Source: a virus
Taxonomy: Duplodnaviria > Caudoviricetes
IMG/VR virus record: IMGVR_UViG_3300043464_002149
Reading direction: 5' to 3' (one strand)
DNA: 64,000 nt
Part shown: positions 42,807 to 63,229 of the stretch, piece by piece
Layout: the number at the start of each line of letters is the position of its first letter
How positions within the stretch are numbered: position 1 is the first letter of the stretch
The notes under the pieces: model-generated
What the model was told of the DNA's origin: nothing
The model's database searches: none
What the model saw: the letters and a program-made list of their open reading frames with translations, nothing else
Position numbers and translations under genes: made by a program

Positions 42807-42998
42807 ATGATAATAATTGATTTAAAAAAAGAAAAGAACCTAGAATCAGCACTAAGAACTTATAAGTATAAAGTTCAAAGAGTAAAACAAGTTCAAAATT
42901 TAAGAGAAAGACAAGAGTTTGTTAAACCCTCAGTAAAAAGACGTGCTGAAATTAATAAAGCTATCTATGTTCAAAAAAAGAAAAACGGTCTTGATTAA
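42807..42998 (+). CDS. rpsU: phage-encoded ribosomal protein bS21
   Basis: 63 aa, NLESALRTYKYK...LRERQEFVKPSVKRR...KAIYVQ (S21 signature F.KPS..RR). Confidence 0.93.
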   Translation: MIIIDLKKEKNLESALRTYKYKVQRVKQVQNLRERQEFVKPSVKRRAEINKAIYVQKKKNGLD

Positions 42999-52855: not shown

Positions 52856-54874
52856 ATGCCAGTAGACTTCGAATACGAGGAAAATCAAAGAACAAATCCG
52901 AAAAACAGAAAAAGTACAACAGGTACACCTATTCTAGATAATTTTTCTAGGGATCTAATTAAATTAGCTCAAGAAGGTAAGATTGATCCAGTTGTGGGTA
53001 GGGACAAGGAAGTTAAAAGAATCGCGCAAATTCTTTCTAGAAAGAAAAAGAATAACGCAGTCATTGTTGGTGATGCTGGTGTTGGTAAATCAGCTCTAGT
53101 TGAAAAATTAGCCTTAATGATATCCAAAGGTAATTGCCCATCTAATTTACTAGATAAGAGAGTCGTTTCACTTGACCTCACATCTCTTGTTGCTGGTACA
53201 AAGTATCGTGGGCAATTTGAAGAGAGAATTAAAGCAATCTTACATGAACTACAAGAAAACCCAGATGTGGTTATCTTTATTGATGAATTACACACTATGG
53301 TTGGTGCGGGTAATGCTAGTGGCTCTATGGACGCCGCTAATATTTTAAAACCAGCATTAGCAAGAGGTGAGATTCAATGTATCGGTGCCACAACATTTGA
53401 TGAGTTTAAAAAACATATCGAAAAGGATGGGGCTTTAGTTAGACGTTTCCAAAAGATCATCTTGAAAGAACCAACAGAAATTGAAACAATTGAAATATTA
53501 AATAATTTACAAAAATCATATGAGGACTATCATAAAGTAACATATGGTGAAGAAGTTATTGAAACAATTGTTAGATTGTCCGGAAGATATATGACCGATA
53601 AACAATTTCCAGATAAAGCAATCGATGTTTTAGATGAGCTTGGTTCAGAAAAAAGAGTTGTAACAAAAATCCCAGAGATTGTTGATAAATTAAAAAAAGA
53701 AATTGAAGATATTAGAAATAAAAAGATTGAGGTGGTTAAAGCTCAAGTTTATGAACAAGCAGCAAAATTAAGAGATGAGGAAAAAAGAGTCCTTAAGAAA
53801 TTAGAGGATGAGAAAATTAAATGGTTAGACAAACAAAAAGGTAATTTAATACCTGTAACAGTTGAAGATGTTTATGAGATTGTTTCTAACATAACAGGAA
53901 TACCAATCACAAAAATTGACAATAATGAAGTAAGTAACTTACTTAATTTAGAAACTGAATTATCAAGTAAAGTTATTGGTCAAGACGATGCAATTTCTAT
54001 CATATCTAAAGCCATTAGAAGAAATAGGGTCGGTATTAAAGATAATAAAAAACCTATTGGTTCGTTTATTTTTATAGGTTCCACAGGTGTTGGTAAGACA
54101 TATTTGGCTAAAAGCTTGGCTCAATTAATATTTGGATCAGAAGAGAAAGTTATTCGTGTTGATATGAGTGAATATATGGAAAAACACGCGGTATCTAGAT
54201 TAATAGGATCTCCTCCAGGGTATGTTGGTTATGATGAAGGCGGTCAATTAACTGAAAAAGTTAAAAACAACCCATTCTCGGTAATCCTGTTTGATGAAAT
54301 TGAAAAAGCACACAAAGACGTCTTTAATATCTTACTTCAAATATTAGACGAAGGTCATCTTACAGATTCATTTGGTAGAAAAGTTAATTTTACCAATACC
54401 TTGATTATCATGACTTCTAATGTTGGCGCAAAAAAAGTATCCGAATTTGGTAACGGTGTTGGTTTTTCTACAACCAGTAGCCAAACACAACAACATGAGG
54501 TTAAAAAAACAATGATACAAAAATCATTGAAACAACAATTTAACCCAGAGTTTTTGAACAGGATAGATGATATTATTTTATTTAATTCTTTAAATGAGGA
54601 ATCACTTAAAAAGATTATTGGCTTAGAAATCAATAAGTTATCACAAAGATTGAAAGAGAAAAAATATCTTATTTCTTTTGATGATTCTGTTTTGAATGAA
54701 ATTATTCAAAGAAATAAAGAAGAGGCTTATGGTGCTAGACCAATAAAAAGAATAATACAATCTCTTTGTGAGGACTTTTTAAGTGATCAAATTTTGATGG
54801 GGACAATTAAGGAAAATAAACCCGTTAAATTAATTTATAAAGAAAAAATGGTCTTAAAAACGAAAATCATATAG
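52856..54874 (+). CDS. clpC: ClpC/ClpB-family AAA+ chaperone lacking the N-terminal Clp-repeat domain
   Basis: GDAGVGKS, FIDELH, GSTGVGKT, LFDEIEKAH, UVR-like middle coiled coil and a VGF loop. ATG 52856 follows a TATGTTTG Bacteroidota-type -7 element. Confidence 0.85.
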   Translation: MPVDFEYEENQRTNPKNRKSTTGTPILDNFSRDLIKLAQEGKIDPVVGRDKEVKRIAQILSRKKKNNAVIVGDAGVGKSALVEKLALMISKGNCPSNLLDKRVVSLDLTSLVAGTKYRGQFEERIKAILHELQENPDVVIFIDELHTMVGAGNASGSMDAANILKPALARGEIQCIGATTFDEFKKHIEKDGALVRRFQKIILKEPTEIETIEILNNLQKSYEDYHKVTYGEEVIETIVRLSGRYMTDKQFPDKAIDVLDELGSEKRVVTKIPEIVDKLKKEIEDIRNKKIEVVKAQVYEQAAKLRDEEKRVLKKLEDEKIKWLDKQKGNLIPVTVEDVYEIVSNITGIPITKIDNNEVSNLLNLETELSSKVIGQDDAISIISKAIRRNRVGIKDNKKPIGSFIFIGSTGVGKTYLAKSLAQLIFGSEEKVIRVDMSEYMEKHAVSRLIGSPPGYVGYDEGGQLTEKVKNNPFSVILFDEIEKAHKDVFNILLQILDEGHLTDSFGRKVNFTNTLIIMTSNVGAKKVSEFGNGVGFSTTSSQTQQHEVKKTMIQKSLKQQFNPEFLNRIDDIILFNSLNEESLKKIIGLEINKLSQRLKEKKYLISFDDSVLNEIIQRNKEEAYGARPIKRIIQSLCEDFLSDQILMGTIKENKPVKLIYKEKMVLKTKII

Positions 54875-54920
54875 TTTTTTACTAAATATTTGACTTTTTA
54901 TGAAAAACACATATATTTAT

Positions 54921-55027
54921 ATGCTTGAAGGTTCTCTTTGTCGATTACCTTTTCGTTTTTTTCAAAAGTAAGCGGGGTTGAATCCGCCGAAAGACCTATA
55001 AACCCCGACATCTTGTTGGGGTTTTTT
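54921..55027 (+). ncRNA. candidate structured small RNA (three-way junction, T-arm-like hairpin) ending in an intrinsic terminator
   Basis: Promoter-like TTGACT-16-TATATT overlapping TATTTAT, several stems, terminator AAACCCCGACA-TCT-TGTTGGGGTTT-TTT; only a 16-codon ORF. Confidence 0.45.
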
Positions 55028-55073
55028 ATTACCATTTGGTTTTTACGTTTTTTTTAGTTATATTAAACATAAT

Positions 55074-56030: not shown

Positions 56031-57233
56031 ATGGTCTCCTTAAAAGATTTAGAAAGATATTATCAAGATGGTTTGTTATTAAAACAAACACATCCAAGAC
56101 ATGATTTAACCATTTGGAATTATTCTTCAAAGGTTCAATATGAAAGATTGTGGGATGATGTTACCACGCAATGTCGCGGATTAGTTACAAACTCAAAAGG
56201 AGATATAGTTGCTAGACCATTTAAAAAATTCTTTAACTATGAAGAACATAAACCAGAAGATTTACCAAATGAATCTTTTGAGGTTTATGAAAAAATGGAT
56301 GGATCGTTGGGTATTCTTTTTTATTATGAATATGAATTGAGTGATGAAAATAGATACAACATATGGTTTAATAACAATTATGAAACGGGTATGGAAAGAT
56401 TCTTTGATCCCAACAACTTGCCTGACTTCGATAACTCTTATTATGAACCAACACCAAAAAATAAGGGTGAATGGATATTAGCAACTAGAGGGTCATTTAC
56501 ATCACCACAATCAATCAAAGGAAAGGAACTTTTAGAGAAATATAATTTTGAAAGATTACATACTGGCTACACATATTTGTTTGAAATTATATACAAAGAA
56601 AATAGAATAGTATGTGATTATGATTATGAAGATGTTGTCTTATTGGGAATGATTGATACAAAATCAGGAAACGAGGTTAACATTCATAATAATAACGAAG
56701 ATCTTCGTTTTACAAATATGGTTTCCAACATTGGATTTCGTGTTGTTATGTTATATAAAACCTGGGGTGAAGGGTATGATTTATTGAAAGAGGAAATATC
56801 TAACGACAGAGAAGGATATGTTATTCGTTTTAAAAACGGTTTTCGTATGAAAATCAAAGGAGAAGAATACAAGCGCCTTCATCGAATATTAACCAACATT
56901 TCTAATAGAGATATCTGGGAGTATTTAAAAGATCATAAACCATTTGATGAGATTTTAGATAAGGTACCGGATGAATTTTATGATTGGGTAAGTAATACCG
57001 CGGACACCCTTTTAGAGAAATACGAAGAAATTGAAAAAAAATCTTTAATTGATTTTGCCAGAATTATAAAAAGCTGTAATATTGATGATAGAAAATGTTT
57101 TGCATTAGAAGCGTTAAAATGTAATAACCCTTCCATTTTATTTTCAATGCTAGACAAGAAAGATTATAGAGATATAATCTGGAAAATTATTTACCCAACT
57201 TACTCAAAACCCTTTAAAAATGATGAAAGCTGA
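56031..57233 (+). CDS. T4 Rnl1-type RNA ligase
   Basis: QCRGLV, ARPFKKFFNYEE, EKMDGSLG (motif I), ATRGSF, TYLFEII, EGYVIRF, MKIKGEEY. Confidence 0.88.
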   Translation: MVSLKDLERYYQDGLLLKQTHPRHDLTIWNYSSKVQYERLWDDVTTQCRGLVTNSKGDIVARPFKKFFNYEEHKPEDLPNESFEVYEKMDGSLGILFYYEYELSDENRYNIWFNNNYETGMERFFDPNNLPDFDNSYYEPTPKNKGEWILATRGSFTSPQSIKGKELLEKYNFERLHTGYTYLFEIIYKENRIVCDYDYEDVVLLGMIDTKSGNEVNIHNNNEDLRFTNMVSNIGFRVVMLYKTWGEGYDLLKEEISNDREGYVIRFKNGFRMKIKGEEYKRLHRILTNISNRDIWEYLKDHKPFDEILDKVPDEFYDWVSNTADTLLEKYEEIEKKSLIDFARIIKSCNIDDRKCFALEALKCNNPSILFSMLDKKDYRDIIWKIIYPTYSKPFKNDES

Positions 57234-57564
57234 AAAAGACAAATTTAATGTGTTCGTTAAAGGAAAGTACAAAAACTTTGAAGACTTTCTTGAAAAGAAT
57301 AAAGATCTAATTTACAATGGTGTAATAGATAGTTTTAAAGAACTTTTAGGTTCTAGAAAAAGAAAAATCAAATACACGGTAAATGCCACAGTAAAGCTGG
57401 AAACAAATGAAGTGGTTGAGTGGAATACGGAATTTTTATTACTGAAAAAAGAACCGGATATTCTGATTGATCATATAATGCAACATTATGAAAGTAATGA
57501 AGATTACGAAAAATGCTCTGAAATATTAAATTTATATAAAGAGTTGACAAATAATGTGAAATAA
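57220..57564 (+). CDS. hypothetical protein with a C-terminal UVR-like motif
   Basis: YESNEDYEKCSEILNL. Confidence 0.55.
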   Translation: MMKAEKDKFNVFVKGKYKNFEDFLEKNKDLIYNGVIDSFKELLGSRKRKIKYTVNATVKLETNEVVEWNTEFLLLKKEPDILIDHIMQHYESNEDYEKCSEILNLYKELTNNVK

Positions 57565-62509: not shown

Positions 62510-63229
62510 TTATGCACCTAATGCTTTACTGAATCCATTAGGACAAGTTCTAGTACATATCAAATCCGCAATAATAGGTGCTACTGCAGTTCCGATTGCA
62601 ATACCAACTCCAGCAGGGGTAGCCCATAATGCCGCCGAATCTAAACTATGATAGATACAATTTGAACATACGTTTCTTAATAATTCTGAATCAATATTTT
62701 CACCAACACCAGGTATTGATAAAAATCCATCTGCCACTATTACACCCATTGCCGTTGATACTGCCATTTTAGCTGCCACATCTGCAACGTAAAGAACAGG
62801 CGTAGCCATCAACGATAATGTAGTTGAAGTTGCCGCTCCAGCAGGTTGTGCTGGTGTAAATGCCGCAACAACACCGGCAGAGATTACTGCGGTTATTGCT
62901 ATATTACAAGCGTTTTCGTCCGCCCAGTTATATGCCATCACAGCACCATCTTTTACCACTTCATATCCCTCTTTAACACCAGATTCTATTTGATTTCCAA
63001 CATTAATAAGTACCGGCATAACTTCTTCTTCCCATTCTCTACCTACCACATCTTCAACTCTATGATTTATTTCAGGATGGTCGTGAATGTATCTTATTGC
63101 TTTATTGGTTAATCCCCACGTATCACACGCCGAACAAGGTCCATCTCCTCCGAATCCATACCATCTTACATAGTTATCACCACAATCCGAGCGATGATAA
63201 ACAACTCCGTCTCCGTTTCTGTCTGCCAT
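62510..63229 (-). CDS. Cys-containing protein with hydrophobic Ala/Gly-rich C-terminal helices
   Basis: 8 Cys, no signal peptide; segments IAITAVISAGVVAAF and GVGIAIGTAVAPIIA. Confidence 0.6.
   Translation of the reverse strand: MADRNGDGVVYHRSDCGDNYVRWYGFGGDGPCSACDTWGLTNKAIRYIHDHPEINHRVEDVVGREWEEEVMPVLINVGNQIESGVKEGYEVVKDGAVMAYNWADENACNIAITAVISAGVVAAFTPAQPAGAATSTTLSLMATPVLYVADVAAKMAVSTAMGVIVADGFLSIPGVGENIDSELLRNVCSNCIYHSLDSAALWATPAGVGIAIGTAVAPIIADLICTRTCPNGFSKALGA

Follow-up and report, generated by a model that had tools for sequence, protein, structure and literature searches.

Genomic context of a small RNA gene downstream of clpC

The 64,000-nt stretch of DNA analysed here, referred to below as the window, comes from a jumbo phage of the T4-like type that encodes terminase, portal, gp23 and bS21, the same layout as that given for freshwater Bacteroidota phages (PMC9723584). 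The bS21 gene (42807..42998, +; Pfam PF01165, E=1.5e-10), which has no Shine-Dalgarno (SD) sequence upstream, lies antisense inside the terminase/portal/capsid cluster, as assigned by Pfam. A gene for a clpC-like AAA+ ATPase, recognised by Pfam and from the loci of relatives, spans 52856..54874 (+). It is the constant upstream neighbour of the gene under study, designated E, which is predicted to specify a non-coding RNA of about 100 nt (54925..55030, +; both ends putative). A Pnk-like kinase and an Rnl1 ligase, both confirmed by Pfam, are encoded 0.5-1 kb from E.

The ClpC-like protein begins with its first AAA module almost at the protein start and keeps the UVR motif. A small ORF at 57220-57564 (+), with a C-terminus that looks UVR-like by eye and no Pfam match, might encode a ClpC partner. 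It has been speculated that bS21 phages possibly encode a protease that removes host bS21 (PMC9976891).

Conservation of E

Eighty loci were fetched from IMG/VR through the upstream ClpC (75-91% identity). E was found on the same strand in 77 of them, the other three ending at or inside E, and was therefore kept in 77 of 77 informative loci, always downstream of clpC, even with another gene inserted between the two. Many of the 80 loci belong to the training set of the E model, so that the model scores for these loci are not independent; the raw sequences themselves show the conservation plainly. E is single-copy within the window. Its 71-nt core folds no better than shuffled sequences (z=+0.22), and sigma70-like sites in the window are rarer than expected by chance (6 found vs 15.6 expected).

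An exact 16-mer scan with the H2 hairpin of the window (described below) returned 33 matches, all unrelated to E; a pattern scan of genome contigs yielded at least 120 loci, and 0 of the 100 scored passed the E model; a loose viral pattern scan gave no new members among 97 loci scored. The R1 search of 151 Bacteroidota genomes gave 0 matches among the 33 candidates scored per genome, a weak negative, and no match to E was found in cultured phages. In one freshwater metatranscriptome (n=1, contigs only), the word share was 0.06 and E was not covered, which makes this data set uninformative. No Rfam 15 family came near its gathering score for E, the best match being driven by the terminator (31 vs 47 bits), and none reached the gathering threshold for P, the partner RNA described below. 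Neither Rfam nor the literature held a description of E or P; the supplements of PMC10690425 lay outside this literature search, and E and P could be among the unnamed candidates of that study.

E folds into two hairpins

Folding of an alignment of 67 distinct E sequences by RNAalifold gave a consensus of two hairpins, H1 and H2, with 97.6% of cells paired. H1 (54929..54950, +) comprises an AGGU/ACCU stem (54929-54932 with 54947-54950), an internal loop, UC/GA pairs and the loop UUUGYC. It is 97.8% paired and carries 13 double changes, all at the single pair 54932/54947; the UC/GA pairs are uninformative because they are invariant. H2 (54972..54987, +), the sole hairpin of its type within the window, has a 5-bp stem with double changes at all 5 pairs and a near-invariant 6-nt loop, GUUGAA, whose closing pair varies among homologues. 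The stems of E contain 22 G-U and 5 A-C cells, a ratio that favours the + strand as the RNA strand.

The initial annotation had proposed a three-way junction of helices P1, P2 and P3. On the same alignment, this junction pairs 82.8% of cells, vs 97.6% for the two hairpins. No compensatory change is seen in P1, whose U-A pair is disrupted in 14 of 67 sequences and whose C-G pair is disrupted in 26 of 67, and E variants with 5' GGA retain 3' GACC, against P1 pairing. P2 is 70% paired, and is able to form in the lineage of the window but not conserved. The junction was abandoned on these grounds, whereas its third helix persists as H2, and the AAGGT/ACCTT helix that had been offered as an alternative fold is the conserved H1. 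The covariation downstream of clpC that had been suggested as a check thus supports two hairpins and the terminator. Readings of E as an HDV-like, pistol, twister, ZTP, preQ1, T-box or sarcin-ricin-like element were rejected; the core motifs that mark these RNAs are not conserved in alignment A1.

Promoter boxes and terminator

The motifs first listed for this locus, TTGACT (54890-54895), TATATT (54912-54917), TATTTAT (54914-54920) and the strands of the three helices, all lie where they were placed. TATTTAT (54914..54920, +) is a late-promoter box, conserved 7-15 nt (mostly 8-9) before the E core and also found on the coding strand ahead of many of the window's virion genes. It is overlapped by TATATTTA (54912..54919, +), a candidate early or host-type promoter element identified by sequence comparison as a variant of the -7 box, differing by one base from the Flavobacterium sigmaA consensus TAnnTTTG (PMC9723704). 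Among relatives, A and G interchange at the last -7 position in the promoter of the next gene. Bacteroidota promoters have a -33 consensus of the TTTG type, and TTTG at 54889..54892 (+), 19 nt before the -7 box, is a putative -33 box of this sigmaA type.

These host-type elements distinguish E from P. TTG occurs 18-22 nt upstream in 63 of 104 E homologues vs 4 of 42 P genes, and TA precedes TATTTAT in 98 of 104 E homologues, 0 of 42 P genes and 7 of the 44 boxes in the window. The dual promoter claimed for E is thus plausible as an overlap of a host-type and a late box, but the host-type part fits the Bacteroidota arrangement (TTTG-19 nt-TATATTTA) better than the sigma70 type originally assigned. 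Such a promoter would be active both early and late.

The predicted intrinsic terminator, a hairpin with a U-tract (55000..55030, +), was recovered by a program scan and covaries among relatives. It is 99.4% paired with 8 double-change cells, is present in 95 of 104 homologues and has an unusually conserved stem. With its promoter box and terminator conserved and no conserved ORF, E has the organisation of the stand-alone non-coding RNA unit that had been proposed, and it very probably gives rise to a real RNA. An imperfect inverted repeat (54880-54919; TAAATA ... TATTTA, with T-run and A-run arms) extends across the E promoter, is conserved in most relatives and may be an operator.

A partner RNA, P, encoded on the opposite strand

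A scan for the reverse complement of E with a longer spacer revealed P, a conserved family of about 105 nt. Its elements are, in order, a late box, a 5' hairpin with the loop UUUGGUC, a variable linker, AACGAAAAGG, AGGURUU, AUCUCGRCAAAG, a hairpin and UUCGUUU; the late box is the only promoter element of the P gene, which has no host-type box. About 40 contigs carry both E and P; in every case the two are encoded on opposite strands, and the distance from E to P, which lies downstream, is 5-41 kb. P is not in the window, where the best match scored 20 bits vs 76-102 for true copies and the flanking genes of P are also absent. Since P lies outside this window, we infer the P of the window phage from its relatives, and would expect it some 15-30 kb downstream of E, on the minus strand and close to tmRNA. 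In a colinear relative (81% nucleotide identity over 11.6 kb), a tRNA cluster follows the point at which the window ends, and P is located 23 kb downstream of E, beside tmRNA. In one relative, the P model matches the reverse strand of E (E-value 2e-4).

In G260 (92% complete), E is present and P was not found among the 150 of 251 candidates scored; on the side where a sister record has P at a distance of 23 kb, the G260 contig ends 16.8 kb from E. In G272, a distant bS21 phage (ClpC 60% identity), a weak P-like element was detected with no detectable E. More distant phages (L790:1501-1607, +, from G272; L789; L791) contain weak P-like elements, scoring 34-41 bits, which include ATCTA and a stretch resembling an SD and have no TATTTAT directly upstream.

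Several features recur around P. It is often convergent on or close to tmRNA (L981:14973-15367, +; L550:1890-2302; L548:1041-1478), and an ORF in L548 appears SmpB-like by eye. In clade A, a group I intron match (L545:581-793, +) lies beside P, with a 173-aa Cys-containing ORF near it.

Complementarity and covariation between E and P

Three conserved blocks of E (A, B and C) are complementary to P in antiparallel order. Block A (54934..54944, +) is complementary to UCGRCAAAG of P, and block B, CCUUUUCGUUU (54948..54958, +), to AACGAAAAGG. Block C, GACC (54993..54996, +), is complementary to the loop UUUGGUC of the P 5' hairpin; both strands are conserved in their alignments and show no covariation, with which this pairing is compatible. 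The invariant blocks alone prove little, as the P blocks also pair within P. Between blocks B and C, a variable linker of E (54958..54971, +) co-varies with the variable linker of P and is a candidate toehold.

The linkers match lineage by lineage, as in UAGUCU:AGACUA, GAAAACU:AGUUUUC and AUAAGUA:UACUUAU, and cognate linker duplexes are more stable than non-cognate ones (-5.6 vs -4.2 kcal/mol). With one row per ClpC clade, the linker covariation gave a median p of 0.0005 (maximum 0.0025), in a test that was designed after the pattern had been seen and used 19 groups from a partly unresolved ClpC tree. Reversed and complemented linkers as controls gave p=0.24 and p=0.66, respectively. Two pairs came to light after the linker test: a 15-nt perfect E:P match with 3U:3A in L724/L785, and 3U:3A again in the colinear relative, whose lineage is near that of the window.

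Block A contains a Y/R column that combines as U-A in 14, C-G in 12 and U-G in 8 of 34 cases, with no C-A. The C variant is found in 5 separate parts of the tree and is matched by G in P each time; there is one nested U-A row. This wobble asymmetry, in which U-G is kept and C-A never occurs, is expected of RNA pairing and not of DNA repeats.

Against the P of a relative, E ranks first of 15,990 window segments, with the second-best segment, a G-rich repeat, just 0.4 kcal/mol weaker. The net gain of the E:P dimer is modest, at -9.5 kcal/mol vs -5.0 +/- 2.7 kcal/mol for shuffled E, and block B mismatches its own P in three lineages (L114/L120, L077 and L573). Comparative sequence analysis establishes the E gene, its two hairpins and its lineage-wide complementarity to P, and E probably pairs with P in vivo. 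The "switch-like" character once suggested for E therefore holds only in trans, because its conserved single strands pair with a second phage RNA.

P copies the leader of host rpsU

In Flavobacteriales, the anti-SD is sequestered by bS21, bS18 and bS6, and rpsU is typically the sole strong-SD gene, translated faster by bS21-less ribosomes (PMC7797042, PMC9976891). An rpsU leader with an extended SD and autoregulation by bS21 have been described for this order (PMC7797042, PMC9976891, PMC13000453). In one Flavobacteriales genus, presumably Flavobacterium, the rpsU leaders read AACGA(G/A)AGG(A/G)GGUG, and 71 of 121 genomes contain exactly one AACGARRGGRGGTG..ATG site, which is at rpsU in those checked. 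P copies the Flavobacteriales rpsU leader, including the extended SD, without its start codon, with AUC near the place of the AUG. The duplex of P with the Mesonia sediminis 16S 3' tail was computed for three cases and comprises about 14-15 bp (-19 to -24 kcal/mol); an oligo in PMC13000453 gives the same tail for F. johnsoniae. A bS21 gene is present in 17 of 20 records carrying E or P, the other three being less than 30% complete.

AAC, AAT or AAA before the SD is conserved in the host rpsU leaders (L907-L932, L835, L840) and copied by P. These bases have no pairing partners in the mature 16S tail. The host bin G384 has four bS21 matches, on C79, C196, C197 and C207; three are divergent, and these may be phage contigs.

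Proposed mechanism

We propose, with a probability of roughly 0.55, that E is a trans-acting antisense RNA, made earlier than P, which restrains P as a ribosome decoy; the background for such a decoy is provided by PMC7797042, PMC9976891, PMC9723584 and PMC13000453. The E 5' half resembles the P 3' strand, so that pairing could start at the linkers and continue by strand displacement. In this scheme, the unpaired linkers of E and P would nucleate pairing, the E 5' half would displace P's own 3' strand, block B would cover the AAGG half of the P SD and block A the site of the missing start codon, and GACC (block C) may dock on the P 5' loop. Because E has a host-type box besides the late box, it would accumulate first and hold P in check; because it has the late box too, E and P would overlap in time. 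Once P outnumbers E, P would grip the freed anti-SD of bS21-less ribosomes, and this threshold might time the shut-off of host bS21 resupply during loading of phage bS21.

Modelling indicates that E lowers the AAGG accessibility of P from 0.66 to 0.12 and weakens P-16S tail binding by 3.3 kcal/mol, from -13.8 to -10.5 kcal/mol, without loss of binding. Overall, an inhibitory net effect of E on P is slightly favoured. A wider scheme is offered only tentatively: E would mask the host rpsU ribosome-binding site as well as gate a start-codon-less anti-SD decoy, such that bS21-less ribosomes are denied host bS21 and given phage bS21.

Alternative explanations

The main rival, which we consider unlikely, is an obligate two-part RNA made up of E and P, in which E serves as scaffold or activator. 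E would break the GAGGU/AUCUC hairpin of P, AGGURUU would be offered to the ribosome or to a protein within an internal loop, and GUUGAA would be a docking loop. The pairing evidence serves this arrangement equally, both genes carry the late box, the SD core of P alone is folded against the invariant AUCUC, and E, P and the 16S tail coexist in a three-strand model. However, the computed exposure of AGGURUUY barely moves (0.46 to 0.50) and tail binding becomes weaker; the host-type box is confined to E, and G272 has a P-like element without detectable E.

Another possibility, rather unlikely in our estimation, is that host rpsU mRNA is the main target of E, with P serving as a sponge, a late mimic of that target, in the manner of AgvB towards GcvB. 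Block B forms 9 bp with the start of the host rpsU leader, and would mask the 5' end of the extended SD, halting host bS21 synthesis. The single AACGARRGGRGGTG..ATG site in 71 of the 121 genomes suits such a target, and rpsU ranks 1-6 of 692 start regions for 12 E variants. In L114/L120, L077 and L573, pairing of block B with host leaders is favoured over pairing with its own P by 2.6-7.5 kcal/mol (median host), and the phage's own bS21 leader escapes E (-4.1). Yet block B matches the host leader automatically once P copies rpsU, and shuffled block B also reached rank 6 or better in 4 of 40 trials (median about 29). The variant in the window pairs with host rpsU over 9 bp including 2 G-U (-10.8, rank 5 of 692), but it fits P better, with 10 Watson-Crick pairs; block A and the linker vary with P and not with the host, and the host genus itself is inferred. 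Masking of the host rpsU leader by E in addition to its action on P may perhaps occur, on weak support. A 21/25 match between the E 5' half and rpsU codons 7-15 was set aside as probably incidental; it needs G-U pairs and is weaker in the block A C variants.

It is improbable that the two loci are DNA-level repeats, whether protein or recombination sites or relics of duplication, in which RNA pairing is incidental. The blocks are indeed direct repeats at the DNA level, and the invariant ones are explicable by each RNA's own fold; on the other hand, G-U is tolerated and A-C avoided, the short lineage-specific linkers co-vary, and both loci possess a promoter box and covarying hairpins of their own.

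Very improbable is the original suggestion of a tRNA mimic that would decoy anticodon nucleases or serve as a substrate of the neighbouring RNA-repair enzymes. It drew on the proximity of the kinase and ligase and on the window reading GGTTGAATCC, taken as a T-arm in P3. The junction on which the mimic was built is not conserved, and the loop of H2 is not in T-arm register because it has 6 nt and a variable closing pair, where a tRNA has a 7-nt loop closed by G53-C61 on its 5-bp stem. E has no acceptor stem or anticodon arm, and, as the first reading had recognised in calling it non-canonical, no D arm or CCA; ARAGORN found 0 tRNAs in the window and 22 true tRNAs in a close relative. E also does not go together with the repair genes: the L976 locus has E but neither kinase nor ligase, and no E was detected within 2.5 kb of the 25 most distant homologues of the kinase. 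A 16-codon peptide gene can be dismissed as highly improbable, for although the frame is open from the ATG at 54921 to 54971, 74 of 104 homologues have no start codon at this site, the U-run length varies freely, and the ATG, which directly follows the late box, precedes the site where transcription is likely to start.

Comparison with known systems

Two marks of an anti-sRNA or sponge are seen in E: conserved trans complementarity to another small RNA and, as far as sequence can tell, a stand-alone non-coding transcription unit. E represents an apparently undescribed RNA family, which would work like an anti-sRNA and is tied by covariation to a mimic of the rpsU leader. One parallel is the AgvB/GcvB anti-sRNA system (PMC12197685), in which a phage small RNA also pairs with a small RNA and one of the two mimics an mRNA target. 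Unlike AgvB and GcvB, E and P are both phage-encoded and co-evolve over three blocks and a linker; the mimicked element here is the rpsU SD, and no sequence relation between the systems is known.

The type VIII toxin-antitoxin system CreT/CreA (PMC10097628) likewise has an RNA with translation-initiation signals checked by a second RNA. CreA works through Cascade on transcription, whereas E is predicted to act by direct RNA-RNA pairing; CreT needs a start codon, whereas P is without one, and 5-41 kb separate the E gene from the P gene. The host rpsU leader, which P copies and of which block B is the complement, is cis-acting and translated, and no RNA acting in trans on the leader is described in PMC7797042, PMC9976891 or PMC13000453. 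The bS21-encoding freshwater myoviruses of PMC9723584 share the genome context of E, and that paper makes no mention of "small RNA", "non-coding" or "promoter".

YrlA-type Y RNAs and tRNA-like RNAs have in common with E a hairpin whose loop resembles a T-loop minus one base. E differs from them in lacking the T-arm register, D arm, acceptor stem and CCA. A Ro60/TROVE gene was found in 0 of 5 large records, 3 of them at least 90% complete, while the control was found in 2 genomes.

Among the ribosomal proteins encoded by phages, bS21 is the commonest, and both the reason for this and the way in which phage bS21 gets past host autoregulation are open questions (PMC9723584, PMC9976891). Two RNAs that co-evolve and act on the one SD-dependent circuit of Flavobacteriales would be a concrete mechanism for phage bS21, and could be tested in F. 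johnsoniae with the existing rpsU'-gfp reporters and bS21-less ribosomes, with no need for phage culture. E and P also clearly illustrate covariation between RNA genes that lie tens of kb from each other.

Two further observations concern the region near the end of the window. In a close relative, 22 tRNA genes (L975:242-4322) follow the region just past this end. A 239-aa protein encoded at 62513-63229 (-) is identical on 14 contigs, an unusually strong conservation, and some of the contigs that share it belong to phages just 72-84% alike nearby.
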